Source of the DNA: an uncultured virus (IMG/VR IMGVR_UViG_3300028840_005337)
Taxonomy: Duplodnaviria; Heunggongvirae; Uroviricota; Caudoviricetes
IMG/VR virus record: IMGVR_UViG_3300028840_005337
Coordinates: 113,610 to 133,609 of that record
Strand: one strand, 5' to 3'
Length of the DNA stretch: 20,000 nucleotides
The notes under the pieces are model-generated. The model did no database searches. It was not told the origin of the DNA and was given only the letters and a program-made list of their open reading frames with translations. Position 1 is the stretch's first letter. Every line of letters starts with the position of its first letter. Below are positions 3,473 through 20,000 of this stretch, one piece after another. The position numbers and the translations under genes were made by a program.

Positions 3473-3536
3473 CCGCGGAAAGCCTTGCGACGCTTGCAAG
3501 CAAAAGTACAAGGAGACTCATCGTGGACGTCTTTGA
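3417..3536 (+). CDS. small basic Cys/His-rich protein (39 aa), putative zinc-binding
   Basis: AAGGAG RBS before ATG 3417. MTKCKNHKRYKGIHPPRCNRGKPCDACKQKY... has CxxH and CxxC; it bridges the flanking genes. Confidence 0.6.
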   Translation: MTKCKNHKRYKGIHPPRCNRGKPCDACKQKYKETHRGRL

Positions 3537-4534: not shown

Positions 4535-5021
4535 TACCCCGCCCGAAGAAGAGGGCCTGACTGACGAACAGCTCGCGGAGATCATGCGGCGCCTTGGCAG
4601 TGCTTTCCTACAGGCTGCCGATCCGCCGGAACGTCCGCAGCAAACTATCTACATCGTCTACGGCGTCGTAGGCGACCGGCCGAACATCAGCACCGTGCAG
4701 AACGAGCAGGCGCTGTGTGACGCCATCATGGAGGCTCGCGTGGCCCAGAACGCCGATCCCGAGAATGAGCGCTACATGCATATCTTCGTTGGACAGCAGT
4801 GGCCTATTCAGAAGGGGCGCGTCTGGTACGTCTGCGCTGGTGAGCGGATGATTCCGGTGACCAGCGAGAACATCGACATGCGCGTCGATCAGACAGGCAG
4901 CCTGCGAGAACCCATCGACTTCGACACGGTCGTACCGTCCCCGCCGGACGAGCCGGAGACCGAAGATGATGAACCGGACGGCGACGTTGAAGTCGTTCCG
5001 GGGCCGCCCGAGTCGGGCTAG
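4524..5021 (+). CDS. hypothetical acidic protein (165 aa)
   Basis: AAGGAG RBS before ATG 4524. Confidence 0.75.
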   Translation: MAADTPPEEEGLTDEQLAEIMRRLGSAFLQAADPPERPQQTIYIVYGVVGDRPNISTVQNEQALCDAIMEARVAQNADPENERYMHIFVGQQWPIQKGRVWYVCAGERMIPVTSENIDMRVDQTGSLREPIDFDTVVPSPPDEPETEDDEPDGDVEVVPGPPESG

Positions 5022-5057
5022 TCAATCTGACTAACATAACAAGGCATTATAAGGTAG

Positions 5058-5089
5058 ACGCCAGCATATCTGCTGGCGTTTTCCTTTTG
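5058..5089 (+). terminator. probable intrinsic terminator
   Basis: ACGCCAGCA-TATC-TGCTGGCGT 9-bp stem followed by TTTCCTTTT. Confidence 0.6.
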
Positions 5090-5105
5090 CAGAAGGAGGA
5101 GACGC

Positions 5106-5339
5106 ATGTTCAAGTTATCTCCCCACAGACCACGTGGTCCGCAACATGGCGCGATCAACGTGCGATGGGTGGAGGGAACGAAGCTACTGCGTGTTGTGTA
5201 CAAAGGTCCCTTTAAGGGGTCAGACCTGATGGACCATACTGCTGGCAAACGCAGGCCGTACGAGGATCTGACCCAGGACGAACTAGATGAGCTCAAAGCA
5301 GCTCAGGCCGCTTTAGGGCGGCCATTACAGCATGCGTAA
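5106..5339 (+). CDS. hypothetical protein (77 aa)
   Basis: Strong AAGGAGG RBS before ATG 5106. Confidence 0.7.
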   Translation: MFKLSPHRPRGPQHGAINVRWVEGTKLLRVVYKGPFKGSDLMDHTAGKRRPYEDLTQDELDELKAAQAALGRPLQHA

Positions 5340-6897
5340 GCATTTCTACTTCTCCACTCGGAGTACAGCTTTGGATGAGTTCCAACAATTGAAAATGGGT
5401 GGCCGCGAGGTCACTACCAAAGTCCGTGAAACAGCAGATGAGCCACAAACGGCTAATCTGGCTACCGACACCATCGAGTTGGCGGAGCAGCTGTTTCAGG
5501 ACTACAAAAAGGGAACGGCTTGGTCGAAGAAGCTTTTCAACGGCCGTAGTGGTTCTCAGCTGATTCAGGCCTTGCGCCTGTGGGCCCAGAAGGTTGACGT
5601 GGACAGGGTTAGCTCCGACGAACCAGTCCTCAACGCTCTCGAGCTTGAGGAAGTGGTCGCCAAGCAAGCCGTCTCGTTGGCACTACCGCTGCAGACCCTC
5701 TGTCGCTGGATCGTCCTCGTGAGGATCGGCGTTGGGCGGCTGCGGCGGGAGCTTCTGGGACTGGTATCGATGGTCCCGATGCCGCCATGCGGTAGCGTGA
5801 GATTGGGGCGCCCAGCTGACCACGTGAGCAAGACTCACTATGTGGTCACGCACGTACTGGGCGATAGGATTTTCAGCAGGGGGTACTTGTTGCGGTTCAC
5901 CGACCAGGGCTGGAAGCTCGGCGGCAAGGAAGGCAACAAGTGGTCCAAGGACCTGTGGCTCACGCCCGGGCTCCAAGAGGTGTCTGCAATCGTCGCGGCC
6001 AAACGCCGCAAGATGATGCCAAATGGCAATCCACCGAAAGGCGAGCTGCAGAACATCAACCGGACCTGCAAGAACCTCGAAAAGAAGCTGAAGGCCAGTC
6101 GGCAATCCGCCGGCATAAGCACTGACCAGTTTAGTAAGGCGCACGGTGCACGCCTCGACCTTGAGAACAAGAACATCATGGTCGCTACCCTGGCCAGCGT
6201 AAGGGCGCTGCTCGCACAAACGATCGTCTACAAGGAAAACCAGACCTTGGACGAGATCGCAGCGCGCCATGACAATTCCAAGTTCGCCTTGCTTGACGAT
6301 CCGTCGCTCGCAGGGGACGAACAGGAAGCGTTCCTTTACCATCTACAGCGTCGCCGCCAAGCGCAGGCGTGCTTCGCGGAACTCGGGAAGTTCGTCTTCC
6401 CGCGCGGGTACATGGTGTTCTCGGAAACGGGTATACCTGACCACGTCCCGCCTGAGGTCCGTGTTGAACTCACTGGCGTGTCCGGTGTCGCCGTCGGCTC
6501 CGAGTATCTGGCATCTCGGTTCGACATTCCTGTGCTGCGTAAGCACGCGGCAGCTCTGCCCGAAGTGGAGGACCTCACGCCGCTCATCGACGCGTGTGGC
6601 ATTTCTACCCTCCACGGCAAGATGGTAGACGAACTAGACGAAATTCAAAAGGATGCGGGAGCGGCCGGCTCTGAGGATTACATCCGCTACCGGCTCGTCG
6701 GCGAAGAACCAGCCGACATGCCGAAAGCCGACTTCTTCCGCAAGACCAGCGTCCGATTTGTTCCGATGGTGGTGAACTTCAATCGAAAAAGGCTCTTCGC
6801 CGAAGATATGCAGGGCGTCTCCAACGGGGTCAGCTTTGCCATCTCGCACGAAGACGTGAACGAGAGGTTCAACCAATGCCAGCCGAAGAAATCTTGA
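5332..6897 (+). CDS. hypothetical protein (521 aa)
   Basis: Long ORF whose start overlaps the end of the previous gene; no motif recognised. Confidence 0.8.
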   Translation: MRKHFYFSTRSTALDEFQQLKMGGREVTTKVRETADEPQTANLATDTIELAEQLFQDYKKGTAWSKKLFNGRSGSQLIQALRLWAQKVDVDRVSSDEPVLNALELEEVVAKQAVSLALPLQTLCRWIVLVRIGVGRLRRELLGLVSMVPMPPCGSVRLGRPADHVSKTHYVVTHVLGDRIFSRGYLLRFTDQGWKLGGKEGNKWSKDLWLTPGLQEVSAIVAAKRRKMMPNGNPPKGELQNINRTCKNLEKKLKASRQSAGISTDQFSKAHGARLDLENKNIMVATLASVRALLAQTIVYKENQTLDEIAARHDNSKFALLDDPSLAGDEQEAFLYHLQRRRQAQACFAELGKFVFPRGYMVFSETGIPDHVPPEVRVELTGVSGVAVGSEYLASRFDIPVLRKHAAALPEVEDLTPLIDACGISTLHGKMVDELDEIQKDAGAAGSEDYIRYRLVGEEPADMPKADFFRKTSVRFVPMVVNFNRKRLFAEDMQGVSNGVSFAISHEDVNERFNQCQPKKS

Positions 6898-7145
6898 GGC
6901 CGCTGTACACCGGAGATGAAGATCTGTCGGTGTGGCTTGAGGGACTCGATGAATGCGACGCACCTAGGCTGTTTCCCCTGTGGCCAGATGACTTCCCGAA
7001 TTATCTGGCGGTATATCTCACAGCCGAGGATGAGCTCGGAGTCCCGCAGAGCAGGCAGGCGATGCTCTACGCCTGCTGTATAGGGAGATTGTGGTTCTGC
7101 CGCGTACCCAAGGCAGAATTCGATGACCACACGACTTTGGAGTAG
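6876..7145 (+). CDS. hypothetical protein (89 aa)
   Basis: GAGG upstream of ATG 6876; fills the gap after the 521-aa gene. Confidence 0.65.
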   Translation: MPAEEILRPLYTGDEDLSVWLEGLDECDAPRLFPLWPDDFPNYLAVYLTAEDELGVPQSRQAMLYACCIGRLWFCRVPKAEFDDHTTLE

Positions 7146-7149
7146 ACCC

Positions 7150-7296
7150 ATGGACGACGACCAATTGGTCGACGACGCCATACAGGCGTTGATTGAGATT
7201 GTTGAACCTTCGGCCCTCCAGGAGGCCGAGACAGAGTGGACAATCCACAAAGCACGCGATGAGGAACCGGTGGCGGCCGACCTCGTCGAGGTCTAG
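7150..7296 (+). CDS. small acidic protein (48 aa), absent from the ORF track
   Basis: GGAG RBS and ATG 7150; MDDDQLVDDAIQALIEIVEPSALQEAETEWTIHKARDEEPVAADLVEV; ends just before a terminator. Confidence 0.55.
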   Translation: MDDDQLVDDAIQALIEIVEPSALQEAETEWTIHKARDEEPVAADLVEV

Positions 7297-7324
7297 TATC
7301 AAGGAGAAAAAAAGGGTAAACTTG

Positions 7325-7361
7325 TCCCTGGGTCGTTCCGTCACGGCCCAGGGATTTTTTT
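7325..7361 (+). terminator. intrinsic terminator
   Basis: 12-bp stem TCCCTGGGTCGT/ACGGCCCAGGGA followed by T7. Confidence 0.85.
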
Positions 7362-7366
7362 AGCTA

Positions 7367-7395
7367 TTGGCGGCAAAACAGTCTGAGGATAGACT
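7367..7395 (+). promoter_or_regulatory. sigma70-like promoter candidate for the block containing the portal gene
   Basis: TTGGCG-17 nt-TAGACT directly after the terminator and upstream of ATG 7419. Confidence 0.45.
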
Positions 7396-7418
7396 GATGG
7401 GCCGGAGGAAAGGATGCC

Positions 7419-8612
7419 ATGCCACTAGAAAAAGACTCGTTTTGGGACCGCGGGAACGCCGTAATGGATTCCCAACTGGATCCCTCGCAGTACCATAATC
7501 CGGCAGAAGAGATACTGCCGATAAGCAAACAATCGATGGCGAGTGTGCTGCCGCCCGGCGTTTGGGGGGCACAGGGCACTGTCATCAGGCGTTCTACGAT
7601 GGATGGAGCACCGATCGGATGGGATCCTTTCGAAGTCGCCACCCGGGTGAATGTCGATCCAGACATCCCCGGGCAAGGCTTCGTGATCGACCCCAGGCAG
7701 ATCCAGAAGGATGCAGCCCTCAAGGCCGTCAAAGATGCCGGTGTGCGGCACGCTTCGACGGTAGAGGACCTGCGCTTCGCCGGTGCGAGAGCCTATCAGC
7801 AGTTCGCCATCAGCAACGTTCCAGATACCCCGGCCATGACCGCACGTGAGCGTCCTCGAGAGGCACCGATTGCTTTGCCTGGCGTCTATGTCGTGCCCAA
7901 GGCCACCGAAGGAGGAGGACAAGAAGTGCCCACAGCCAACGAGCATGTGAACGACATCGTCAGCGGTTATGACCTCGCCCAGGGCGTGGCCACAGGCCGC
8001 AACGATCAACCATCTGCGAAGCAGCCCCAGGAGCCCGCAACCGTCCCGCAGGCCCCTGCGCCGCCTCCGCAGTCTCCGCCGCCCGTGCCGCAAGGTCCCC
8101 CGCAGCCACAGCCGCAGCAGGCTGTGTACGCTGCGCCACCGCAACCGGCCCCGGCCGCTCCGGCAGCCCCTGTGGCTCCGGTAGGCGCACCCATGCCTGC
8201 CCCGTCGTTGTTCGGCCCGTGCGGCCCTACCGGCGAGACACCGGCTGCCGCTGGACCCTCTGCGCCCAGCTACAAGGTCACGTTCGAGGTCCGCGGCGCG
8301 CCCGCGGCTATCGAAGCGTGGTACCACGAGATCGTCAAGGACAACCAGGTGCTCGTGATGTGCTATGACACGCGCACCCACGGTTATCCCCGGATCAACC
8401 TCATGCCCACCGAGGAAGATATCGCCATCCATCTCGACGGCAGCGACATGGTCTACGACGTGACGGACCCCGCAATCAAGTTCGTTCACGGGCACGATGA
8501 GCTGCAAATCTTTCTCATCAAACGCGAGCGCCCGTTGCCTGGCGCTGTCGTTGACAGCACGCCTCAGGCTGCGGTTGCCGGCGGGCAACACAATATCGTG
8601 GGATTGCAATAG
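7419..8612 (+). CDS. hypothetical protein with central Pro/Ala/Gln-rich linker (397 aa)
   Basis: GGAGGAAAGG upstream of ATG 7419; two globular-looking halves joined by a low-complexity linker. Confidence 0.8.
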   Translation: MPLEKDSFWDRGNAVMDSQLDPSQYHNPAEEILPISKQSMASVLPPGVWGAQGTVIRRSTMDGAPIGWDPFEVATRVNVDPDIPGQGFVIDPRQIQKDAALKAVKDAGVRHASTVEDLRFAGARAYQQFAISNVPDTPAMTARERPREAPIALPGVYVVPKATEGGGQEVPTANEHVNDIVSGYDLAQGVATGRNDQPSAKQPQEPATVPQAPAPPPQSPPPVPQGPPQPQPQQAVYAAPPQPAPAAPAAPVAPVGAPMPAPSLFGPCGPTGETPAAAGPSAPSYKVTFEVRGAPAAIEAWYHEIVKDNQVLVMCYDTRTHGYPRINLMPTEEDIAIHLDGSDMVYDVTDPAIKFVHGHDELQIFLIKRERPLPGAVVDSTPQAAVAGGQHNIVGLQ

Positions 8613-8706
8613 GCGTAGCAGTACTGGCAGCCAAGGGGTAAGATGGTGGATATCTACGTCAATAAGCAACAGATGGCACAGATCATTGCCCTATGGGGAG
8701 ATTCCG

Positions 8707-8883
8707 ATGAGCATGGAAAAACAGGGAGTGGTTCGCCGGGGCACGACCCCGGAGATCGAGGAGAAGCAAGAGAAGACCGCGGCCGATGCTGCAGCCGAGA
8801 CTCTCAAACAGGCAGCCCGCCGGCTTGAGCAGGACGACCCCAACGGGCGTCTCGCTGACGGTGTGGCCAAGCGCTCCAAATAA
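8707..8883 (+). CDS. small protein (58 aa) upstream of the portal gene
   Basis: GGGGAG RBS before ATG 8707; MSMEKQGVVRRG...EKTAADAAAETLKQAARR; ends 14 nt before the portal start. Confidence 0.65.
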   Translation: MSMEKQGVVRRGTTPEIEEKQEKTAADAAAETLKQAARRLEQDDPNGRLADGVAKRSK

Positions 8884-8897
8884 TCCAAGGACGGATC

Positions 8898-10895
8898 ATG
8901 AGCTTCCTCATCCCATCGTTTGCTGGCGGGACCAATCGGGGTTCGCAGAACATCGAGCCCTTCCCCGACCCCTTCTGCGACTACGCGTCGACGCGTATGC
9001 CCGAGTCCCTGGAGAATGCTCTCCGGTGGTGCGAGTACATCATGCTGGCCAACGGCATCTACCGATCGGCGGTGGACCGAGTGGTCTCGTACTTCATTAC
9101 CGAGGTGGAGATCGATGGGACCGATCGGGACGGCAAGGAGAAGTACCTTGACTTCCTGAACAACACGCTGGGCATCAACTCGATCCTTCGGCAGACGGCG
9201 CTCGACTACGTCACCTACGGGAACTTCTTCAACTCGCTGGTTGTGCCATTCAGACGGCACCTGCGCTGCCCAGGCTGCGGCTTCGAGGCGCCTCTCGACC
9301 GGATCCACGGCAACGACAAGTTCAACTTCTCGTGGAGCGGCTTCGAGTTCAACGCCAACTGCCCCTTCTGCAGCTACCACGGCAAGTGGGCGCACAAGGA
9401 CAGGCGATCGACCGAGGAAGACGACATCATCATCAAGCGCTGGAGCCCGCACGAGATGGAACTCGTCTGGGACCCGTACACCGACCAAGTCGGGCACGTG
9501 TGGCGCATCCCGAATCACTACAAGAAGTACATCAACCAAGGAACCTTGTTCCATCTGGAGCGTGCGCCGTGGGAGGTCCTGCAGGCGATCAAGAACAACA
9601 CGCATATCCAGTTCAACAAGGACATCATCTACCACGGCAAGGAAGATACCCTGGCTGGCGTGCTGAACAAGGGCTGGGGCGTCAGCCGTATCCTGACGAA
9701 CTTCCGTCAGGCGTGGTACGTCCAAGTGCTTCACCGCTACAACGAGGCGATCGGCCTCGACTACATCATCCCATTCAGGGTGATTACGCCCGAGCCGCGT
9801 CCGGGCGGGGCCGGCGGTGGTGGTGAGTCAACGGACCCGCTGTTCACCGCTGACCTCGGCGGCTTCGTAGGCCAAGTCAACTCGATGCTGCGCCAACGGC
9901 GGCGTGACCCGACCATGTGGTTCACCATGCCGTTCCCGCTGAAATACCAGACTCTCGGGGGGGAAGCTAGCCAGTTGGCCCCGTATCAGCTCATGGACCA
10001 GGCCGTGGATGGCCTCCTGACGTCCGTAGGCGTCCCTGTGGAGCTCTACAAGGGTACGATGAGTCTCCAGGCTGCCCCGGCCGCGCTGCGGCTCCTGGAG
10101 AGCACCTGGAGCCACCTGACGACGATGCTGAACAACTACCTCCAGTGGCTGGTCAACAAAATCAGCGTGGCGCTGTCCTGGGACGAGGTTACGGCCACCC
10201 TGGCCAAGCCGTCGCACGCGGACGATCTGAACCGTCAGCTGGCCAAGCTCCAGCTCATGATGGGACAGTCGATCAGCCAGACGACTGGCCTCAAGAGCGT
10301 CGGCCTCAAGTTCGAGGACGAGCAGCGCCGCATGCTCGACGAGCAGAAGTTCATCGCCGAGGAATCGCAGAAGACACAAGAGGAGCTGGAAGCCTCGGGC
10401 ATGGGCGATGCAATGGCGCAAGGCATGATGGGCCCCGGAGGCCAACCGACCGATCCTGCTGCGGCAGGCATGGGTGGCCCTGGTGGTTCCGCACCTCCGC
10501 AAGGCGGTGCACCTCCGGCCGGCGGCGCACCGGGTGGCGCTATGCCTCCTCCAGGCGCAGAAGCCGGAATGGCGCCGATGGACCCGATTCAGGCCATCAT
10601 GGCACAAATACCTCTGGGCAATGAGCAAAGCCTCACGCCGCCAGAGCTGGAGCAGATCGCCAACACGGTTGCCGAGCAGATCTACGGACTGCCCGGCGGG
10701 CAACGTGTATCCGCGCTGCGACAACTCAAGCAGGCGTCGCCCACCATTCACAGCCTGGTCAAGAGCCTTCTCGAACAGAAAGACTCGCAGGCTGAGTCCC
10801 AAGGCCGCATGATGGGCCAAGAGCAAGCTATGCAGATGCAACAGCAGAGCATGGCTCCACCCCCGCCGATGGGGCCGGGTGGTGGGATGATGTAG
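8898..10895 (+). CDS. probable phage portal protein with CxxC...CxxC insert and Gly/Pro/Met/Gln-rich C-terminus (665 aa)
   Basis: 'LDYVTYGNFF' and 'SVGVPVEL' resemble the 'xxxxGNxx' and 'gvP..l' segments of HK97-like portals. Size and phage context fit. The call rests on motif recall only. Confidence 0.65.
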   Translation: MSFLIPSFAGGTNRGSQNIEPFPDPFCDYASTRMPESLENALRWCEYIMLANGIYRSAVDRVVSYFITEVEIDGTDRDGKEKYLDFLNNTLGINSILRQTALDYVTYGNFFNSLVVPFRRHLRCPGCGFEAPLDRIHGNDKFNFSWSGFEFNANCPFCSYHGKWAHKDRRSTEEDDIIIKRWSPHEMELVWDPYTDQVGHVWRIPNHYKKYINQGTLFHLERAPWEVLQAIKNNTHIQFNKDIIYHGKEDTLAGVLNKGWGVSRILTNFRQAWYVQVLHRYNEAIGLDYIIPFRVITPEPRPGGAGGGGESTDPLFTADLGGFVGQVNSMLRQRRRDPTMWFTMPFPLKYQTLGGEASQLAPYQLMDQAVDGLLTSVGVPVELYKGTMSLQAAPAALRLLESTWSHLTTMLNNYLQWLVNKISVALSWDEVTATLAKPSHADDLNRQLAKLQLMMGQSISQTTGLKSVGLKFEDEQRRMLDEQKFIAEESQKTQEELEASGMGDAMAQGMMGPGGQPTDPAAAGMGGPGGSAPPQGGAPPAGGAPGGAMPPPGAEAGMAPMDPIQAIMAQIPLGNEQSLTPPELEQIANTVAEQIYGLPGGQRVSALRQLKQASPTIHSLVKSLLEQKDSQAESQGRMMGQEQAMQMQQQSMAPPPPMGPGGGMM

Positions 10896-11340
10896 CTTCG
10901 AGGTAATCGGCAGCGGCTCGGCACAGTGCCGGGTCGTCTTGAAAATATCCCAGACCAGGATTGCAGCGTGTGCACAGCAGGCCACGCACTTTACCTGTTA
11001 CATGGTCATGGTCGACATGGAGCGTCCTATCGCTGGCTTTACGGCAGATGGCGCAGCGACCATCTTGCTCCCGCAGCAACTTATCGAACGCTTCCTGATC
11101 AAGACCGTACTTTTTGAGTCCCTGTTTACGGTTGTGCTTTTGATAGCGTGCCTTGTTGGCATCGCGCCAGCGTTTGCTTGAGTCTCTATTTCGCTGCGGA
11201 TTCTTACGGCGATACTCTCGTTGGTAATCCGCCCTGCATTGTTTACAGTGGGAGTCTCGGCCATGGCGTTTTTGGGAGGCGCGTGAGAACGCCTCGACTG
11301 GCTTGGTCTCACCGCATTTGGTACACTGTTTCTCAGCCAT
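10828..11340 (-). CDS. endonuclease VII-family (His-Me/HNH) nuclease, probable free-standing homing endonuclease
   Basis: 'QDGRCAIC...LHVDHDHVTGKVRGLLCTRCNPGLG' is the endonuclease VII signature. N-terminal CxxC...CxxC and a basic helix. GAGGGG RBS on the minus strand. Confidence 0.9.
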   Translation of the reverse strand: MAEKQCTKCGETKPVEAFSRASQKRHGRDSHCKQCRADYQREYRRKNPQRNRDSSKRWRDANKARYQKHNRKQGLKKYGLDQEAFDKLLREQDGRCAICRKASDRTLHVDHDHVTGKVRGLLCTRCNPGLGYFQDDPALCRAAADYLEATSSHHPAPSAGVEPCSAVASA

Positions 11341-11367
11341 GATACCCCTCTATGGGTAGACTGGTTA

Positions 11368-11401
11368 GAACTGAGGGCAAGCCCATCTTGACCCTCGGTT
11401 C
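11368..11401. promoter_or_regulatory. inverted repeat between the divergent HNH and glycosyltransferase genes
   Basis: GAACTGAGGGCAAG/CTTGACCCTCGGTTC (14 bp with one G-U and one bulge). The right arm contains TTGACC, followed 18 nt later by GATAAT. Confidence 0.4.
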
Positions 11402-11451
11402 GCCATTTTACGATAATTCCTGCTGGTTTGGCAACAGCGAGGAGCAGCAAT

Positions 11452-12495
11452 ATGGCTGAGCGGCTAGGGCTTTACGGCCGTTACTACCAGCACGAAACGA
11501 CCCAGGCAACCATCATGCTGGCTGAGACAGCCACGAACCAAGGCATCCCTGTGTCGATGCTGGCACGCGACGTGTGTCGCCGCGAGGTCTCGGGGAGCTG
11601 GGACAACCGAGTTCTGTCGAACAAAACGCATCCTTACCGTCACTGGGTACGCACGCTAAATAACGTAATTTGGACCAGCGTACCATCTCTCGGCGAGGTC
11701 CAGCTGGCCAAGCAGCTTGGCGTCCGGACCAGCATCCTGATCAACTGGGAGACGCTCGTCCCCGAGGACGAGGCGGTCATCAACCACATCGACAAGGTCA
11801 TCCTGCCCTACCGCTGCGTGGGTAAGGCCATCCACAAATACTGGACGCTGCCTTCGAAGCCCATCATGATGCCCTGGGATGTGCCCGTGGCGCTCACCAA
11901 GCAGCCCGAGCATTTCCGTCGGCACGTCACAGCATACTTCCCGCTGTACGACTCGCAGCCCGAGCGCTCCGACTGCGCTGTGTTTGACATGATGGAGAAG
12001 GCGCTCAGTGAGGTGCCTGACAGCTGCGTCCTGATCGCCTGTGGCCGCAAGTGGTCCTTGGCGTCCAGGAAGGCCGTGAAGCGCCTACGGAGCCTCTACG
12101 GGCCTCGTACGGTGGCTGTCATCCGACCCAATATGCTACAGCGTCTCCTGCTGTTTGCCAGGGCGGACGTGACCGTCTGGGCGCCGCGGTTCGAAAGCTT
12201 CGGCATCGTGGGGCTGAACAGCATCTGCATGGGCACTCCGGTGCTCTCCTGGGACGTCCGACCGCAGAACGAATTCCTCAAGCCCTGGAAAAACGCCATG
12301 CTGGTTCCGTGCAAGACGGACAAGAACTGGATCGGCGTCCCGGAGGTTGTCGGGGGGTATGGGGACTTCGGTGAATGCTTGATAGCGCTCTTGCGGGACA
12401 AAGCACTACTTGCAAGAATGAAGTCTACCGTTTTGACCGGCATGGAGAGCCGCAAGCAGCAGTTCCTGGCCGGATGGGAAGAACTACTGAAATGA
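11452..12495 (+). CDS. GT-B fold (GT4-like) glycosyltransferase
   Basis: C-terminal 'ADVTVWAPRFESFGIVGLNSICMGTPVL' matches the GT4 'aDvfv.PS..EgFGl..lEAma.G.PVi' motif. AGGAG RBS before ATG 11452. Confidence 0.8.
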   Translation: MAERLGLYGRYYQHETTQATIMLAETATNQGIPVSMLARDVCRREVSGSWDNRVLSNKTHPYRHWVRTLNNVIWTSVPSLGEVQLAKQLGVRTSILINWETLVPEDEAVINHIDKVILPYRCVGKAIHKYWTLPSKPIMMPWDVPVALTKQPEHFRRHVTAYFPLYDSQPERSDCAVFDMMEKALSEVPDSCVLIACGRKWSLASRKAVKRLRSLYGPRTVAVIRPNMLQRLLLFARADVTVWAPRFESFGIVGLNSICMGTPVLSWDVRPQNEFLKPWKNAMLVPCKTDKNWIGVPEVVGGYGDFGECLIALLRDKALLARMKSTVLTGMESRKQQFLAGWEELLK

Positions 12496-12507
12496 CGAGG
12501 ATAAACG

Positions 12508-13020
12508 ATGTCAGTACCGAATCAAATCAGCCACCGTGCTAACTACAAGGCCCAGAAGGAAGCCGGCCAAGTCGCCGTCAACCCGAAGCCCGGTCAGCCG
12601 CCCGCTGCGGCACCGCCCCAGTTCCCGAAGCGCAAGAAGGGCGAGAAGACCACCTTGCGTGAGAAGCTGGGCATGGCGCCCGTGGCGCCAACGACCGTGC
12701 CGGACGAGGCTGAGTCCGAAGCACCTGCCGCTCCCAAGCTCGCTGCGCCCAAGACGCCAGTCGAGGAGATCATCGAAGAGGAGAACGAGAAGTTCTTCGC
12801 TACGGTCCGGGAGCTGGCCGAAGATCCCGAACCTGAGGCGGACGAGTACGATCCGGAAGATCCGGAGAATGCCGAGGGCGACGACAATACGATCGAAGTC
12901 GATCCGCCCCAGGACGATGGAGAGGAAGAGGCCGTAGCGCAAGAGCAAGGGATCGGCAAGCTGCCGTCGTTTGATCTCGGCAGTCCGGCCTCTGAACCCG
13001 AAGAGAAGCCCCTGATCTAA
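12508..13020 (+). CDS. hypothetical protein with basic/Pro-rich N-terminus and very acidic C-terminus (170 aa)
   Basis: GAGG RBS; low-complexity composition, likely disordered. Confidence 0.7.
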   Translation: MSVPNQISHRANYKAQKEAGQVAVNPKPGQPPAAAPPQFPKRKKGEKTTLREKLGMAPVAPTTVPDEAESEAPAAPKLAAPKTPVEEIIEEENEKFFATVRELAEDPEPEADEYDPEDPENAEGDDNTIEVDPPQDDGEEEAVAQEQGIGKLPSFDLGSPASEPEEKPLI

Positions 13021-13028
13021 GGAAGCCG

Positions 13029-13607
13029 ATGGGAAGACGACGTCAAACGACCCGGCGTCACAAGCGGAAGACAGGGCGTTCCAAGGAAGCGAAGGAAAAG
13101 GGCCGTCGCGGTGGCCGTACCATCATCAAAGAAGGTGAGAAGGTGCGCCGCAACGAGCCCTGCTTCTGTGGGAGCGGTCTGAAGTTCAAGGCCTGCCACG
13201 GCAAGCCGAAGACGCCGCGCAATGTGATGCGTTACAACACGCTCGAGGACATGTACACCGATGAGCAGCGCGCTGCCATGCGGGAGTTCTCGAAGTACTG
13301 GGGATTCCACCCAGATCCCATGCTGCTCAAGATGTTCATGGAGGAGGACTACGACGCCATCGTCGCAGAGGTCACACGGGCCATGCGAGAGACAGGCGCC
13401 GATCCTGCCCACATCTACGCAGTTCAACAGGTCACAGGCCTGGTCACCCCACGCAACCACGGGCTCCTCTCTGAGGCCGAGCTCGAGCTGTGGGAACGAA
13501 TGGTCCAGGAATACCGGGACCAGCACCCAGAAGAAGGAGAGAACGATGGCGGACAAAGTCCCCCACCTGATGGCGTATCTGATGGAGGAGTACCAGCGAC
13601 AGGGTGA
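13029..13607 (+). CDS. SEC-C motif-containing protein (192 aa)
   Basis: 'KVRRNEPCFCGSGLKFKACHG' matches the SEC-C metal-binding motif (RNxPCxCGSGKKxKxCH). AAGG RBS. Confidence 0.85.
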   Translation: MGRRRQTTRRHKRKTGRSKEAKEKGRRGGRTIIKEGEKVRRNEPCFCGSGLKFKACHGKPKTPRNVMRYNTLEDMYTDEQRAAMREFSKYWGFHPDPMLLKMFMEEDYDAIVAEVTRAMRETGADPAHIYAVQQVTGLVTPRNHGLLSEAELELWERMVQEYRDQHPEEGENDGGQSPPPDGVSDGGVPATG

Positions 13608-13977
13608 GACCCCGGCTGGACAAGATCCCGATCCCAGTGCTCTCGACGAGCTTGACGAGCACCTCTCGCTCGAAGTCGAGGACGATCGGGATACGGCTAC
13701 CGTGCGCAAATACCAAGAGGTCGCTCGATTCGCCATCGAGGACTTCTGCGAGTTCTGCGTGCGTCGGCTGCACGAGAATCCTCCAGTAACTGTGAGCGCC
13801 GCCGAAGTCGCTGAAGGGCTTGGGCTGCGCTTGGCCGACCAGACACTTGTCTGTACCCGGAAGGACGGCACCACACAAGGCGAGGGCACAATGGAGCCTG
13901 CGGGCGACGTGCCAATCACCAAGAGCGGCGGTGGCATGGAGGGTACGCGAAGCGTGCCGGTCACCGGCAAGAGGTAG
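13546..13977 (+). CDS. hypothetical protein (143 aa)
   Basis: AAGGAG RBS before ATG 13546, an in-frame internal start of the 13261 ORF. Confidence 0.7.
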   Translation: MADKVPHLMAYLMEEYQRQGETPAGQDPDPSALDELDEHLSLEVEDDRDTATVRKYQEVARFAIEDFCEFCVRRLHENPPVTVSAAEVAEGLGLRLADQTLVCTRKDGTTQGEGTMEPAGDVPITKSGGGMEGTRSVPVTGKR

Positions 13978-14513
13978 TGTCGACTGCCTGCTTCATAATC
14001 TCTATCTTGATTGCGATGGCAGGTATGATCTGCTGGTCGCACTCCAAGATGCAAGCGATCAATGCTGAGCAGCAGCGCTTAACTGCGGAGTTCAAAAAGA
14101 GCACCTCGGCGCTGCGCGCTCGCGTTGATACCTTCTTAGTTACGCCCCAAGAAGAAGCCGAGGCGCAGATCGAAACTGCGCTTGAGCTCATCGACGAGGG
14201 CCTCACCACCGACTATGTCATCAATGCCGTATTCCGTCCGCATGATGAATACGAGCGTGGTATCTGTCGTGACGTTCTCTGGGCAGCGGCTGAACGCCGA
14301 GGTCGACAACGTCGCCGTGACGGCGGCATGCAGCATGTCTTTGAGCAGATGTGGGGCATCCAGGAGCGGCTACGACTTGCACGCCAACGTGAGCGCGATC
14401 AGCGTGAGGCGTTAGAGCAGCAACGTGCTGAGGAAAGTAGGGCTGACACACGGAGGCCCAGACTATTACGATTTCGCAAGGAGGAAGTAGATGACCCATC
14501 ACCCCAAACGTGA
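13977..14513 (+). CDS. membrane-anchored hypothetical protein (178 aa)
   Basis: GTG start coupled to the upstream TAG; hydrophobic N-terminal segment 'CFIISILIAMAGMICW', then charged helical sequence. Confidence 0.7.
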   Translation: MSTACFIISILIAMAGMICWSHSKMQAINAEQQRLTAEFKKSTSALRARVDTFLVTPQEEAEAQIETALELIDEGLTTDYVINAVFRPHDEYERGICRDVLWAAAERRGRQRRRDGGMQHVFEQMWGIQERLRLARQRERDQREALEQQRAEESRADTRRPRLLRFRKEEVDDPSPQT

Positions 14514-14805
14514 CTGCGGCGAGCGTTTTGAGATTGCCGTCGGGTTTCCCGAAGGCACACCCGACAACATCGTTGGCTACGAAAACACGCATATCGACGC
14601 GTACGACTCTGCGAAGGGCGTGGCACTACGGCAAGATGCCTGCCGTGGGATTGTTACAGATCGTCAGGGTGACGACCATGCGTCGCTCATCCGGGACGAG
14701 GAAGGATGCCTGACCGCCAATGATGGCGGACCCTGCAAGAAGTGCGCCGGGGTGTCGTTTTGGCACAACGAATTCACCAAAAGACCCCTCGGAGAACCTA
14801 CTTAA
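14491..14805 (+). CDS. hypothetical protein (104 aa)
   Basis: AAGGAGG RBS before ATG 14491. Confidence 0.7.
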   Translation: MTHHPKRDCGERFEIAVGFPEGTPDNIVGYENTHIDAYDSAKGVALRQDACRGIVTDRQGDDHASLIRDEEGCLTANDGGPCKKCAGVSFWHNEFTKRPLGEPT

Positions 14806-14832
14806 AAACTACAGGATTTAGGGCATTCTAAG
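14802..14832 (+). promoter_or_regulatory. copy 1 of the repeated promoter-like motif
   Basis: TTAAAAAC-11 nt-GGGCATTCTAAG. Confidence 0.6.
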
Positions 14833-14925
14833 TCAAGCAGCAATAAGATCGCTGCATCACTAAGATGGTGGTGCGCGTTTGCATGAGCGTGCACCATTGC
14901 ACCCCGAACATGAAGGGAGAAAGTC

Positions 14926-15543
14926 ATGCGCACCGATGTACTGCTGGCGATTGTGGGGACCATCCTGCTGTGTCTCGTCGCGTTGTTCTGCTGGGATGCC
15001 TTTGGGCCGGAGACGGCCTCGGCAGCGCCCGCAAAGCAGACCGAAGCGAAGGACACCAAGAAGGACACCAAGAAGGAGGAGGCAGAGCCGACCTCCACTT
15101 GCACGCCTTCCCCCACCCCGGCCATGCAACCCCGGCCTGATCGCAAGGCCTCGCCGACCCCGGCGAAACGGTGTTTCACACCGAGCGAGCTGCGGGAGTT
15201 CTGCAGCAAGACGCCGCCCACGCTGAAGTACGTCATCGTCGAAGAGACCGTGACGAAGAACAGCAAGGAAGAAGAACCATTCGCCAAGTGGCTGGTTCTC
15301 GACGGCGGCAAAACTCTCGTTATTCCCTATCGGCATCGGAACGTCTGGCACAAAGCCGGCACCACCGAACCGATGGAGGAGAGCGAAGAGGTCACGCTTC
15401 CGAAGCATTGGGAGCACTGGGATCGGATCGCCGATAACCAGTGCGACTTTGCGCCGGAAGCACGTGGAGATCGGATGACCTCCACAAAAAGTAATGGCGG
15501 CCACACCCTGCGGGTGGGGCGCTATTACTTCGACGCACCGTAA
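14926..15543 (+). CDS. secreted or membrane-anchored protein (205 aa)
   Basis: GGAG RBS; N-terminal hydrophobic helix 'VLLAIVGTILLCLVALFCW' followed by a Lys/Pro/Thr linker. Confidence 0.75.
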   Translation: MRTDVLLAIVGTILLCLVALFCWDAFGPETASAAPAKQTEAKDTKKDTKKEEAEPTSTCTPSPTPAMQPRPDRKASPTPAKRCFTPSELREFCSKTPPTLKYVIVEETVTKNSKEEEPFAKWLVLDGGKTLVIPYRHRNVWHKAGTTEPMEESEEVTLPKHWEHWDRIADNQCDFAPEARGDRMTSTKSNGGHTLRVGRYYFDAP

Positions 15544-15610
15544 CTTCTGGGTTCCGTTTGGTATGTGCATCCTGTAGGATGAATCACGCTACCATCGGAA
15601 CCAAGCGATA

Positions 15611-15657
15611 AAGAGCAGCGCCCGGCCCCATCCAGGCCGGGCGCAACGTGCTCTTTT
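15611..15657 (+). terminator. probable terminator hairpin
   Basis: GCGCCCGGCC/GGCCGGGCGC 10-bp stem with outer AAGAGCA/TGCTCTT and a short T-run. Confidence 0.55.
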
Positions 15658-15688
15658 CGCTTAGCCTTTGGAACATAAGGAGCCGGCA

Positions 15689-16189
15689 GTGAAGCCGATC
15701 TATCCAGACGACATAATCGATTTCATGGCGAGCGGAGAGCCGCTCTACGTTGTCCTCGAGGCAGGTCCGTTCAAAGAGAACGTGTCGCCCTACACCGGCG
15801 AGAAGACCACTGTCGAGGATACGTCTATGCATGGGAGGGTGCAGCAGGTGGTCGGTTACAATCCGCCGTGGATCCTGCTGTTGCCTCTCGAACCGCCTCG
15901 GAAGAACCCGTCATCGCTGGGTCCGTTCTCGGTGATGGCGTTTGGGCCACAGCCGCAACAGCGTCAGCCCGAGGCAACACCCTACTACCTGCCGGACATT
16001 TCCATGCGGCAGGTGGACGGTGACTACTTGGAAGCTTACCGCAGGTACGTTTGTGGTGAGCAGGAGAAGGAGGACGTCTTCAAAGACCTGACGCCGATCC
16101 AGCGCACCATCCAGCGGCTGGAGTGCGGGCAGTGCGAAGACAAATCCAACTGCACAAACTGTATATCAAAGAGGCAGAAGAGTGAGTAA
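15689..16189 (+). CDS. hypothetical protein with Cys-rich C-terminus (166 aa)
   Basis: AAGGAG RBS before GTG 15689; ends CGQC...CTNC. Confidence 0.7.
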   Translation: MKPIYPDDIIDFMASGEPLYVVLEAGPFKENVSPYTGEKTTVEDTSMHGRVQQVVGYNPPWILLLPLEPPRKNPSSLGPFSVMAFGPQPQQRQPEATPYYLPDISMRQVDGDYLEAYRRYVCGEQEKEDVFKDLTPIQRTIQRLECGQCEDKSNCTNCISKRQKSE

Positions 16190-16841
16190 TCGCAACCCAA
16201 GGGGAATCCGGTTGGATCGTGGAGAGCACGACGAGGAGCTCGAAGGCACCTACACCGTCGAGGTTCACTGCGCCAACTGTGACTGGGCGGGAGATGTCGA
16301 GATACCCAAAGGCATTCCCGTACCCAAAGGACTACCACTCGAACAGATTGCCAGGTGCGATGAGTGCGGTTGCTACACGCTCATCCGCCCTGCCGATGAA
16401 GAAGAGCCAGAGACTGAGCCCTCGCAAGGGGAGGAGGTTGATGCTGCTCAAGAACGCATGGATCAGATCCGGCGTGAACTAGAGCGAGTACGCAGGGAGC
16501 AGGGAAACCGCCCGCTGCCTCCGTTTACTCCATATCGTGAGCGTCCGCCGCGTGAAACGCCGGTGCCAGATCCCAATGTCGTGCCTCGTCCGTCGGAGCA
16601 GACATCGCCGTGGGGGCCCGTGACGCCCGTGACGCCCAGGCCGAACACCGGTGACGGCTTTCCGCCTGGCATGATCTGGATGTCCACCACGGGACAGCAA
16701 GGCGAGCAACCAAACCTGAACGGCGATATATTCCCACGGGATGCCGTCAGTATGTCGAGTCAACCACTGCGTCGGGAACACCTTTCTGACGCACAAGTTG
16801 AGTGGCTGAACCATATCGGGTGCAACCCCGAGGAGGTGTAA
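16182..16841 (+). CDS. zinc-ribbon protein with Pro-rich C-terminal half (219 aa)
   Basis: GAGG upstream of GTG 16182; CANC...CDEC pair in the N-terminal part. Confidence 0.7.
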   Translation: MSNRNPRGIRLDRGEHDEELEGTYTVEVHCANCDWAGDVEIPKGIPVPKGLPLEQIARCDECGCYTLIRPADEEEPETEPSQGEEVDAAQERMDQIRRELERVRREQGNRPLPPFTPYRERPPRETPVPDPNVVPRPSEQTSPWGPVTPVTPRPNTGDGFPPGMIWMSTTGQQGEQPNLNGDIFPRDAVSMSSQPLRREHLSDAQVEWLNHIGCNPEEV

Positions 16842-16866
16842 GCACACACATTCACTTCTTTCTTCG

Positions 16867-16909
16867 AGACCCACCGTACTCTCCCGCAGTACGGTGGGTT
16901 TTTCTTTTT
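16867..16909 (+). terminator. intrinsic terminator
   Basis: ACCCACCGTACT/AGTACGGTGGGT 12-bp stem followed by TTTTCTTTTT. Confidence 0.85.
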
Positions 16910-16930
16910 GCGGGATCCAAGGAGGCCCAC

Positions 16931-17941
16931 GTGGCTGTGAAGTACAAGACAGAGGCTATCGAGCTTGGCTTGAAGGCCTCACGGCAGCTGCTACTGAACA
17001 CGGATGAATCCACCTGGAAGGAGGACGATCCGCAGATCAAACTGGGAAACGATGCGCTGGCTGCCAGCGCACAATTCGTTCCCGCGGCACGTTTGCAGAT
17101 GATGCTGGACGGACCGCCCACGCTCGAAACGGCCGAGCTGGTGACGAATCCGACAGTCAAGCTGGAACGCATGGGCGCGGCGATCCACTTCCTGCACAGC
17201 GCCCGCGATCGTTTCCTCGAAGGTGTCGTGCGTGCCACCCACTTCATGGTGGGCAAGATGCAGGCCGCGGTGCAGCCGTTGAACTTCGGCGAAACCATGG
17301 ACTGGATCGAAGAGAACGTCAGCTTCACGGAGCCCACCACCAACATCCTCGGGCAGATGGAGCAGTTGATCTATCTCGCTGCCAGCTCCAGCGGCAACGA
17401 CAAGGCTGCCTGCGAAGCCATCTGCGCCGATTTCGTCGACAGCGTCTGGGCGCGTGCCATCCCCTACGAAGAGGAGATCTGGGGACTCTTCCTGGAGAAG
17501 AAGGACGCGTGGCTCGCAGAGGACAAGGCGAAAGAGGAGGCAGAAGGTGGCGGCTCCGGCGGTGCCCTCGGCGCGCTCATGCAGATGCTCGGTGGTGGCG
17601 GTGACGGTGGTGGCCCTGTGGCCATCAACATGGCGGATGTGGCCCGTATGGCCGGGGTGGAGTGTGACTGCCCCGAGTGCACGGCCGAACGCGCAGCAGC
17701 GGCTGGCGAGACGACCGAAGCCATGTCCGTCGAGGATGCCCAAAAGGTGGTCAACGAGGCCCGGGGCGACCTCAAGCTCGATCCGATCGAAGACTTTGAC
17801 AAATGGGAGATGCGCGCGGACGACGGTTCCACCTACCCGCTCATCGACCAGGTCGTTATCAACCGGATGACGAAACTCCAGATTTCCATGATGATGGATA
17901 ACGGCCTCATCCGCCGTAGAAAGGAACCCGCGGAAGCGTGA
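16931..17941 (+). CDS. hypothetical protein (336 aa) with Gly-rich linker and CDCPEC motif
   Basis: AAGGAGG RBS 5 nt before GTG 16931. The longer ORF-track start would cross the terminator. Confidence 0.8.
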   Translation: MAVKYKTEAIELGLKASRQLLLNTDESTWKEDDPQIKLGNDALAASAQFVPAARLQMMLDGPPTLETAELVTNPTVKLERMGAAIHFLHSARDRFLEGVVRATHFMVGKMQAAVQPLNFGETMDWIEENVSFTEPTTNILGQMEQLIYLAASSSGNDKAACEAICADFVDSVWARAIPYEEEIWGLFLEKKDAWLAEDKAKEEAEGGGSGGALGALMQMLGGGGDGGGPVAINMADVARMAGVECDCPECTAERAAAAGETTEAMSVEDAQKVVNEARGDLKLDPIEDFDKWEMRADDGSTYPLIDQVVINRMTKLQISMMMDNGLIRRRKEPAEA

Positions 17942-18273
17942 GCACCGGAACCATTCCCCTTGACATCCTGAACGCACGTCAGTGTGAACGTATAAGACTC
18001 GTGCCGCGGCAGCACGGGTTGGAGCTGCAGTTGCAAAATCCCAACGGTCTTGCCCCTACCGACGAATATGACCCAGCCAAGCTGGCTATTTTCGAAACAC
18101 CCGAAACCAAGATTTGCAACGACCAGCTTATTGCGTCTGTCCGCGTTGAGAAGACTGAGAGCGGCTACCAGTTCTATTCGACACTGCCGCACGGCGCACG
18201 CATCTGTGCAGCCATCACAGCACTCAACACTATTCTCGACAGCCACGGCAGCCTCCCAGTGAGACTGCTTTAG
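17938..18273 (+). CDS. hypothetical protein (111 aa)
   Basis: GTGA start/stop overlap with the previous gene. Confidence 0.65.
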   Translation: MSTGTIPLDILNARQCERIRLVPRQHGLELQLQNPNGLAPTDEYDPAKLAIFETPETKICNDQLIASVRVEKTESGYQFYSTLPHGARICAAITALNTILDSHGSLPVRLL

Positions 18274-18314
18274 CGTTGAAAGGAAATAGCCGTCAAATAA
18301 GGCCCCAAAAGTGC

Positions 18315-18349
18315 TTAAAAACAGCGCTTTTTTGGGCATAGTAAAGTAG
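18315..18349 (+). promoter_or_regulatory. copy 2 of the repeated promoter-like motif, upstream of the structured region
   Basis: TTAAAAAC-11 nt-GGGCATAGTAAAGTAG. Confidence 0.65.
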
Positions 18350-19350
18350 AGCGCGCACGTCATTGAAATGGCGTGAGCGACACGCATTGCAGCGGGGCTC
18401 TGGTTTGGTTCATCCCGTAAGGAGTTGCGGGATGTGCCTCAACTCTGCATGGCCGGCAACCTAGTGAGCCGGTCAGCTTGCCAGCGTCCGCGTGCCGCGC
18501 AGCACGTGGGTACTGGCCGCGCCAGAGCCTACGTTGCAATGCGTGTCGCGTTCGCACTCTTAGACCGGAGAGAGGTGCCCTCTCCGGTTGAAGCCTCTGC
18601 AGAAATGTGGAGGTGTCGGCGGCCCTGCTATGGTCTAGTCCACCGGATACCCAAACGGACTCGGGGCCATCGCTCGTAAGCCTGGTGGTAGGGGTTATCG
18701 TCCGTTCCCCGAGGCCAAAATGGACGAAGGGACTTCTACGCACGCCGGGACCACCTCCCCACCGCGTAGACTCCCGGCCAATGCCGCGTCGTCGGAGCGC
18801 GGGTGGCCGAAGAAGCGTCAGAGGTGGCAGGCCCATGGCCGTGACGGTTTCCGATCCGTCACGGCGCAAGGGCCATCCCCCCGAGGTCGACGGGGGCGCT
18901 GGGAGATGGCACATTCCCCAGCATGCGGTAGGCGTAAAGCGTACGGGGTGTGAGCCCGACGCGAGGAAGCCTTGTACCGTACGTGCCAGCAGCGCAGATG
19001 TGGTCCCGCCCATCTGACGTGTGCTACCGGCCGCTCCATATAGCAGGCCAACAAACGACCACGGGAAAACTCACGTGCAGGCGACGTGCACGTGGACCGT
19101 CATCCGGCGGTATAAAATAGTGACGGGCCAATGAGCTCCGAGTACCGACTCGGTTATCAAAGCGGAGAGCGGGCAGGCCCGCAAACCATGATTGACCCCG
19201 GCCCGGTCACTATCGGATTGGCTTGATCAGCCAACGATTGTTATGGACGCACCATCCCATAAACGTGCGTATCGAACAATCGGATCGATCACCTTGGGCC
19301 CTGTACGCTGAGGCGTGCAGGGCACCAGACCAGAGCATAGACATTTTTTT
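18350..19350 (+). ncRNA. candidate large (~1 kb) structured non-coding RNA
   Basis: No credible ORF. About 20 helices are visible by eye, including an 18+9 bp stem (18377-18403/18522-18549), long-range pairs and crossing pairs. Promoter-like motif upstream; hairpin 19298-19323 and T7 (19344-19350) downstream. Confidence 0.7.
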
Positions 19351-19361
19351 AGCCTTCAGAA

Positions 19362-19379
19362 CTTATTCACGTGAATAAG
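19362..19379. promoter_or_regulatory. perfect 18-bp palindrome (operator-like)
   Basis: CTTATTCACGTGAATAAG is its own reverse complement. Confidence 0.45.
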
Positions 19380-19381
19380 AT

Positions 19382-19702
19382 CTACACAGGCGGAGGAGGA
19401 TCGGGGGATTGCTGGACGATACCAGCGGCGGCCACGCCCTCCAGATCGATCAGGCCGAAGATCGGCTGCGTCCCGCCGAGCAGCGCCCTGGCGGCAATGC
19501 ACGAGCTGCCATAGCCATGCATCTCGGCCTTCCACGGTTTGCCATCTTTGAACACTGGCAGGATCACGTTCACGACGAGCCCGCGGTGGTAGCAAACGCA
19601 AATGGTGACGGTGAAGTTCTCTTGGCCCTCGCGGCCTTCCGACTGCTTGACGGCGATTTCGAGGGCGTCGTTGATGTGCTTGAGGACATCTTCGGGTTTC
19701 AT
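19382..19702 (-). CDS. hypothetical protein (106 aa)
   Basis: AAGGAG RBS on the minus strand before ATG 19702; MKPEDVLKHINDALEIAVKQSEG...; protein-like composition. Confidence 0.7.
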   Translation of the reverse strand: MKPEDVLKHINDALEIAVKQSEGREGQENFTVTICVCYHRGLVVNVILPVFKDGKPWKAEMHGYGSSCIAARALLGGTQPIFGLIDLEGVAAAGIVQQSPDPPPPV

Positions 19703-19765
19703 GACTCGGCTCCTTGGGTTTCGAATCATCCCAGTATGCCAGGATTTCGGGCCCTCTGCAACAGG

Positions 19766-19800
19766 TTAAAAACAGCGTTTTTTTGGGCATAGTAAGTTAG
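19766..19800 (+). promoter_or_regulatory. copy 3 of the repeated promoter-like motif
   Basis: TTAAAAAC-11 nt-GGGCATAGTAAGTTAG; 32/35 identical to copy 2. Confidence 0.65.
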
Positions 19801-19871
19801 GGCGCCACTGGCATCAAACAAATCCACCCGATCCCGGCGCCTGGGTGGTTATTCTTGAAGGGAGAATACCG

Positions 19872-20000
19872 ATGAGAAACTACATGTCGAGCGTGGCCGC
19901 TTACTGTGTTATCATCTGCGCGATCTGCTGCACCGGGTGCAGCAAGTTCAGTCGCGTGCAACCCGCCGCCGCCGAGACTGGCTTCGAAGAGAAGCCGGAC
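19872..20000 (+). CDS. putative lipoprotein or secreted protein (3' end outside the window)
   Basis: GGGAG RBS and ATG 19872; MRNYMSSVAAYCVIICAICCTGCSKF... has a hydrophobic stretch ending in a lipobox-like TGC. Confidence 0.6.
   Translation, partial: MRNYMSSVAAYCVIICAICCTGCSKFSRVQPAAAETGFEEKPD

Follow-up and report, generated by a model that had tools for sequence, protein, structure and literature searches.

A candidate one-kilobase structured RNA framed by cassette-boundary motifs in an uncultivated jumbo phage

The window analysed here is the last 20 kb (20,000 nucleotides, positions 113,610 to 133,609) of the 133,609-bp IMG/VR virus record IMGVR_UViG_3300028840_005337, an uncultured member of the Caudoviricetes with a CheckV completeness of 62%. 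Near the 3' end of this window, about 1 kb of DNA had been read, from the sequence alone, as a large structured non-coding RNA (ncRNA) with its own promoter and end signal. The kilobase is non-coding, it folds in excess of chance into a well-defined ensemble, it is framed by motifs that are used again at other cassettes, and it matches no Rfam family. These features bear out the core of the sequence-only reading; several of the long-range closures that it proposed are disfavoured by the energy model, and the end signal is not a canonical terminator. On balance, it seems fairly likely that the locus is a genuine structured ncRNA gene, namely, a separate transcription unit of ~1.0 kb on the + strand.

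Coding status of the kilobase

Coding content was judged with a codon model trained on 59 long open reading frames (ORFs) of the same contig. The longest stretch without a codon-supported ORF is window 18,274-19,381 (contig 131,883-132,990; 1,108 nt). It was compared with the other low-coding gaps of at least 300 nt, of which the 133.6-kb contig has 11 in all. At 0.622, the GC content of the candidate RNA lies above that of the other ten gaps (0.52-0.59). The five ORFs inside the stretch (77-217 aa) score -0.14 to -0.23 per codon, and their GC content is flat over the three codon positions (GC1/2/3 of ~0.65/0.65/0.62), whereas the window's accepted genes reach +0.06 to +0.32, and their GC1/2/3 is ~0.65/0.42/0.74. 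The translations of the inside ORFs are rich in Arg, Pro, Gly, Ser, and Thr. When the 12 six-frame ORFs of the region were searched, Pfam gave no match at E<=0.1 (a single match had E 0.17), and PHROG gave nothing meaningful (three matches, E 0.08-0.23). The claim that this kilobase holds no plausible ORF is thus upheld by the negative codon scores, the flat GC1/2/3 profile, and the lack of a Pfam or PHROG family.

If the stretch did encode a protein, the gene would be the 217-aa ORF on the - strand (18360-19013), the 136-aa ORF on the + strand (18607-19017), or one that uses a different genetic code. Both of these frames are open, and a perfect AAGGAG stands 7 nt ahead of ATG 18432, yet the ORF that starts there has only 10 codons (MCLNSAWPAT). 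Against such a gene, the 217-aa and 136-aa frames score -0.17 and -0.14 per codon and share the flat profile, the amino acid composition, and the lack of a Pfam or PHROG family described above; furthermore, translation table 11 keeps all the neighbouring genes open. Antisense ORFs of 328-414 aa sit opposite real genes, which means that long empty frames are normal in a genome of 59% GC. A protein gene is accordingly highly improbable.

The AAGGAG and the ATG lie within 18419-18464, the Shine-Dalgarno sequence in the loop and the start codon in the stem of one hairpin of the 5' domain (Domain 1, or D1). This arrangement may be due to chance. Another low-coding gap of ~1 kb (contig 63,505-64,482), beside the terminase gene, was rejected as a candidate RNA: it reads as small membrane-protein genes.

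Folding against chance

Folding was compared with that of dinucleotide shuffles, 60 per strand for the whole unit (18,350-19,330). The minimum free energy (MFE) of the + strand is -496.2 kcal/mol, compared with -411.5 +/- 8.8 kcal/mol for the shuffles, which corresponds to a z-score of -9.6. The ensemble is also well defined. A base-pair probability (P) of at least 0.7 is reached by 282 of the 343 MFE pairs, as compared with 168 +/- 45 pairs in the shuffles, and the mean positional entropy is 0.52, as compared with 1.03 +/- 0.23. None of 12 shuffles matched the native values of entropy, diversity, or count of well-defined pairs. By part, the z-score of the + strand is -8.6 for 18356-18549 (-6.8 on the - strand), -2.7 for 18550-18623, -4.2 for 18624-19047 (-0.3 for its first half alone), and -5.5 for 19048-19343; four of the five individual parts fold below their shuffles. 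The folding advantage expected of a structured RNA is therefore present, and the stretch folds far beyond chance.

All 16 local hairpins that had been pointed out by eye (5-17 bp, with 14 G-U pairs in total) are present in the sequence, as are all five long-range complementarities. In the energy model, D1 is the best-supported part and is solid: the duplex 18377-18403/18522-18549 amounts to -52.1 kcal/mol, and the closing helix has P 0.96-1.0 in the ensemble. The description of the RNA as "multi-domain" holds in spirit, but the domain map past 18,549 and its long-range closure are uncertain. The proposed closure of a ~420-nt domain by 18624-31/19040-47 and the two inner helices 18926-31/19024-29 and 18939-46/18977-84 have an ensemble P of 0.003 or less, and the proposed 3' helix 19117-29/19200-13 has P of ~0.11-0.13. 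The energy model instead favours long-range pairing of 18656-18677 with 19123-19147 (21 bp, P 0.86) and of 18880-18889 with 19056-19065 (9 bp, P 0.90). Direct repeats inside the unit are limited to one 15-nt pair. The features of the locus are listed in Table 1.

Table 1. Coordinates of the candidate RNA, its predicted structural parts, and the adjoining features in the window
Feature	Position	Strand	Remarks
Upstream operon end	18274..18284	+	Upstream ORF stop at 18271-18273
P1, 42-nt promoter-like motif	18313..18354	+	TTAAAAACAGCGC TTTTTT GGGCATAGTAAAGTAGAGCGC
Candidate ncRNA body	18355..19343	+	~990 nt, GC 0.622
5' hairpin, 7-8 bp	18356..18375	+	P 0.84
Domain 1 (D1), 28-bp closing helix (one G-U, one bulge) round three hairpins	18377..18549	+	P 0.95-0.99
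D1 inner hairpins	18407-18438, 18447-18477, 18480-18517	+	
Two adjacent hairpins	18563..18617	+	18564-18588, 18590-18617 (GAAA loop), P 0.95-0.99
Central multi-helix region	18624..19065	+	Local helices well defined, e.g., 18830-18874 (17 bp), 18988-19025 (16 bp); z -4.2
3' region	19072..19326	+	Hairpins 19072-19094, 19096-19111, 19219-19233, 19236-19281; z -5.5 (+), -2.5 (-)
Terminal GC-rich hairpin	19296-19326	+	
T1 end module	19344..19379	+	T7 (19345-19351), AGCCTTCAGAA, perfect 18-bp palindrome CTTATTCACGTGAATAAG (19362-19379)
115-aa gene	19382..19729	-	Convergent, real; codon score +0.219; GC1/2/3 0.64/0.41/0.76; AAGGAG before ATG
P2, second copy of the motif	19767..19806	+	Leads to protein-coding cassette, first ORF from 19869

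With regard to the strand, the energy of D1 is -124.0 kcal/mol on the + strand and -99.5 kcal/mol on the - strand. This difference of 24.5 kcal/mol is caused by G-U pairs. The two hairpins after D1 are also more stable on the + strand, by 6.6 kcal/mol. The asymmetry of G-U pairs that would point to the + strand is thus clear only in the 5' 270 nt; in the central and 3' parts, the z-scores favour the + strand despite equal raw energies. Internal G-U / A-C mismatches number 16 / 2 on the + strand and 14 / 6 on the - strand, and the two MFE structures are not mirror images.

Boundaries of the unit and reuse of the motifs

Compared with the window, every one of the four other contigs and four runs has 52 additional nt between 18283 and 18284. 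This segment consists of an intrinsic terminator hairpin, TTTCTTTT, followed by the box AGCTATCAGGA, and it serves the upstream operon. The shorter form in the window reflects either a variant with a deletion or a difference between assemblies. The P1 motif follows, and the transcript probably starts near 18350-18356. The 42-nt motif has only two copies in the contig, whereas 0.04 are expected by chance. A third copy lies on the + strand further downstream in the run contigs, and copies 2 and 3 lead to protein cassettes. The motif may be read by one of the two sigma-70-family proteins that the contig encodes (L005:1707-2471 and L007:18012-18854).

At the other end, the T1 end module recurs twice in the contigs of four runs, at the ends of the next two cassettes. 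The three cassettes between start motif and end module measure 991, 3,184, and 2,830 nt. A metagenome contig (L121) that extends 3.8 kb beyond the window shows the second cassette to consist of six + strand ORFs closed by the same end module; a Pfam search with 7 ORFs of this cassette gave no family. In a related phage genome (G003, described below), TAAAAACA-N11-GGCAT(N)GTAA occurs 130 nt upstream of a protein-coding gene whose ribosome-binding site is strong. At another site of the same genome, a canonical terminator hairpin, T7, AGCCATCAGA, a palindrome, and a P-like motif are found together in ~110 nt. The P and T motifs thus make up the two halves of a junction between cassettes in this phage group. 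The proposed promoter and end signal of the RNA are thus retained as motifs that are reused at other cassettes and in G003, but not as a sigma-70 consensus promoter and a canonical terminator.

The next gene downstream, which encodes a protein of 115 aa, is convergent with the unit. Therefore, the unit has no downstream gene to lead into and is not a 5' leader. A search of 5.8 billion proteins with this neighbour found no homologue but itself.

Comparison with known RNA families

Rfam 15 at the gathering score gave no match in the window, and elsewhere in the contig it found only four tRNAs. When 18200-19450 was scanned permissively (E<=10), two snoRNA matches at chance level appeared, and ARAGORN found neither a tRNA nor a tmRNA in the window. 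RNase P, tmRNA, and intron cores had not been recognized in the stretch by eye; the Rfam searches agree with this, and they extend it to GOLLD, ROOL, OLE, and HEARO. A group I/II intron was rejected, since Rfam gave no match and no host gene is interrupted: the upstream ORF is closed by a stop (18271-18273) and a terminator of its own, and the gene that follows the unit is read from the other strand.

CsrB/RsmZ-type sponges resemble the candidate as trans-acting RNAs of many hairpins, and they illustrate a possible decoy way of working. Such sponges repeat one short motif in many loops, whereas neither modules nor loop motifs recur in the candidate RNA. OLE is encoded on bacterial chromosomes and has protein partners; the candidate differs from it in that the only adjoining gene encodes the 115-aa orphan without annotation and in that Rfam gave no match. 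The likeness to OLE is that of a large ornate ncRNA with many helices, which in OLE are conserved (PMC12286853).

The likeness to GOLLD and ROOL concerns size (0.6-1 kb), the many helices, the phage setting, a patchy occurrence among relatives, and a function that is not known. There are also clear differences. GOLLD often has an adjacent or embedded tRNA, whereas ARAGORN found none in the window and the four tRNAs of the contig are ~78 kb away. The candidate matches neither the GOLLD nor the ROOL model even at E<=10, it is known from one phage lineage only, and it has a 28-bp near-perfect helix. According to Kretsch et al. (2025; PMC12286853), GOLLD and ROOL form RNA-only multimeric nanocages, the purpose of which is still not known. 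The candidate belongs to the group of large ornate phage RNAs of unknown function only by resemblance, and it is in no curated family.

The size and the phage setting, which resemble those of GOLLD and ROOL (PMC12286853), would also fit a diverged GOLLD, ROOL, OLE, HEARO, group I/II intron, RNase P, or tmRNA that the models had missed. However, Rfam gave zero matches at the gathering score apart from the four tRNAs, only the two chance-level snoRNA matches appeared at E<=10, ARAGORN found no tRNA or tmRNA, and no host gene is interrupted. These results make a missed member of a known family scarcely credible.

Relatives and copies

Relatives of the phage were found through the terminase and a conserved 665-aa protein, at 66-82% identity. 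Two of them, G002 (226 kb, complete) and G003 (153 kb), share synteny with the window over positions 50-16,841. The positional analogues of the RNA in G002, G003, and L134 were rejected, as they are protein genes or unrelated sequence.

Searches for a homologue of the RNA, which took in seven related IMG/VR records, were negative. Distant-mode blastn of the RNA found none in the phage database or among plasmids, and nhmmer and blastn found none in the whole of G002 and G003 or in 12 further related loci. In five related virus records, blastn with the RNA and with window 14000-20000 gave only a 38-nt match in G003, which is the end-module palindrome. A covariance model built on D1 recognized D1 itself with 211 bits and gave no further match at E<1 in 649 kb. 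Searches of IMG/VR and five related records with the flanking proteins (16802-17941 and 19382-19729) were empty. The scans of IMG/VR, metagenome contigs, and GTDB used exact words or patterns. A 24-mer of D1 had 0 occurrences in GTDB genomes, and a degenerate promoter pattern gave 7 rows in the metagenome contigs, which correspond to 4 contigs of the same phage plus G003. Two sets of IMG/VR matches were rejected as chance: 73 loci with the promoter 15-mer, all judged by the extended motif, and 8 loci with a 16-mer of the RNA.

The stretch itself is present almost word for word in 10 DNA runs from sediment and seawater metagenomes of 8 studies; none of the listed runs is an RNA run. Four runs contain no alternative letters at a share of 10%, apart from one extra T at 19343 in one of them. 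A strain variant (L123) has 55 differing positions, including a 6-nt deletion, all of them in 17,086-17,659, a part of the 379-aa gene, and none in 17,952-20,000. These differences look like a recombination mosaic.

Weighing of the interpretations

Several results weigh against a structured ncRNA gene on the + strand. The - strand also folds below its shuffles (-468.8 compared with -406.8 +/- 10.0 kcal/mol, z -6.2), and the energies of the central part (D3; -207.1 kcal/mol on the + strand, -205.3 on the - strand) and the 3' part (D4; -120.0 and -119.2) are nearly equal. Hairpin density is not unique to the locus: L008:850-1250, a 400-nt intergenic stretch elsewhere in the contig, has z -7.7 (100 shuffles). 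Among five coding controls of 981 nt (14 shuffles each; z -1.7, -6.3, -0.9, -1.4, and -1.1), one is strongly negative too. As to the boundaries, a promoter scan does not see the P1 motif as a sigma-70 consensus promoter, and the T7 is located 17 nt 3' of the last hairpin, so that it is not a canonical intrinsic terminator. In G002 and G003, the RNA is absent together with the two genes upstream of it and the one downstream. The copies in L119, L121, L122, and L123 and in runs X1, X5, X7, and X10 are identical over the RNA, and no diverged homologue was found. Finally, a near-perfect helix of 28 bp is unusual for old structured RNAs and resembles an RNase III substrate, which suggests that processing by RNase III is possible.

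In the main rival, the kilobase is a hairpin-dense accessory spacer, composed of terminators, stability or processing hairpins, protein-binding palindromes, or a small-RNA precursor, with no overall fold. The apparent architecture would then merely result from folding any long sequence rich in hairpins. The folding of the - strand and of the L008 stretch fits such a spacer, and so does the 28-bp helix, which could be an RNase III site. An array of ~15 hairpin repeats in the syntenic accessory arm of G003 also favours a spacer, as does the ambiguity of the long-range closures, which have many partners at P<0.5. However, the hairpins all differ in sequence and are unrepeated, and 1 kb far exceeds any other such tract in the contig. 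Several long-range helices reach P 0.86-0.90, and the whole unit lies between one promoter motif and one end module, as the gene cassettes do. A spacer of this kind is considered unlikely, although more probable than the other alternatives. An element that works at the DNA level, such as an origin of replication, a site of packaging or recombination, or the decayed remains of a mobile element with inverted repeats, would account for inverted repeats that fold on both strands and for the resemblance of D1 to a 173-nt unit with 27-bp terminal inverted repeats; assemblies also tend to break near this arm. This explanation is improbable. The GC content is above the genome mean (0.622 vs 0.590) and not AT-rich, there are no iterons or direct repeats, and neither D1 nor any other part has a further copy in the contig. 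The 24.5 kcal/mol by which G-U pairs make D1 more stable on the + strand speaks for a role as RNA. Moreover, the run contigs read through the region, which is thus not a genome end, and the assembly breaks lie beyond window 20,000, in a strain-variable gene.

Proposed model and its meaning

For the structured ncRNA gene, the following course of events is proposed. The upstream operon would stop at its own terminator, and the phage-specific motif P1 would initiate the RNA near 18350-18356. The RNA would then fold into ~30 helices, with a 5' domain (18377-18549) of very high stability followed by two hairpins and an extensive central and 3' part. The unit would end at the module of T7 and palindrome, which closes the neighbouring cassettes too. 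The product would be neither an mRNA, a leader, nor an intron. By analogy with GOLLD and ROOL, it might act in trans as a folded particle during infection, serving as a scaffold or decoy for a host or phage RNA-binding factor. The transcription of the unit, its strand, the ends of the RNA, and its entire function are what we infer from these features.

More tentatively, the RNA may found a new class among the ornate phage RNAs, with a length of ~1 kb that exceeds that of GOLLD. It would be a jumbo-phage cassette with a phage-specific promoter common to accessory protein operons, and it would form an RNA-only particle, e.g., a scaffold that assembles itself or a decoy by which a host factor for defence or RNA processing is sequestered. 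This is possible, but we would not yet expect it. Since no diverged homologue is at hand for covariation, the new class is a candidate and not a finding.

To our knowledge, only a handful of very large structured ncRNAs are known. If the proposed RNA gene is real, an unrelated 1-kb example with clear cassette boundaries would widen this small set, and jumbo phages would be seen to keep such RNAs in exchangeable accessory cassettes next to their protein operons. As a single sequence from a single phage lineage, the RNA has its value as a well-delimited experimental candidate rather than as an established class. It stands out chiefly by its length, its signal, and the clean boundaries of its cassette.

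The phage and other observations

The contig encodes a gpA-type terminase, an NAD ligase, and a DnaB-like helicase. A protein of the RNA locus is recorded on a contig of 220,266 bp; the phage is therefore of jumbo size. It is uncultivated, with a total of roughly 220 kb, and its genome has a GC content of ~59%. A search of GTDB genomes with the terminase found no relative, and the host was not found by that route. Two endonuclease VII homologues are encoded, one at window 10828-11340 on the - strand (E 5.6e-23) and the other at L004:7466-7960 on the + strand (E 1.5e-24).

The four tRNAs (two Met, Glu, and Gln) are located at 50.7-53.9 kb. They lie in a 5.5-kb region (L006, contig 49,930-55,384) that has several low-coding gaps and no other Rfam match. 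Two spacers of this region fold at z -5.4 and -4.3 on the + strand (15 shuffles).

Other strongly folding or hairpin-rich places were noted. The intergenic stretch L008:850-1250 (contig 80,850-81,250) has several perfect hairpins of 13-21 bp and ends in the palindrome TTTATTCACGTGAATAAG and a GC-rich hairpin. The coding control with z -6.3 comes from a 521-aa ORF without a Pfam family, of which it covers the first 981 nt (window 5332-6312). The array in G003 (145,986-147,700; L117/L118) repeats a hairpin of ~38 nt, TGCCCCATCCAGGTCTAACGGTCTGGCTGGGGATTGCTT, ~15 times, with GT-rich spacers of ~60 nt in between and one small ORF embedded. It lies in the accessory arm that is syntenic with the 3' end of the window, and it could be a repeat-hairpin RNA array or a set of iterons.

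Sites that resemble the palindrome YTTATTCACGTGAATAAR with 0-3 mismatches number eight in the contig, at 15,658; 39,645; 53,522; 64,507; 81,110; 88,430; 96,864; and 132,971, the last of which is window 19,362. Several of them are directly ahead of a ribosome-binding site or start codon, and they may be operators or regulatory hairpins.

Within 18,630-18,691, a part of the RNA, the contigs of run X5 are interrupted at 18,659-18,662. A low-depth contig of 123 nt tracks the window for 30 nt and then departs from it. This contig may represent a minor variant with another continuation.

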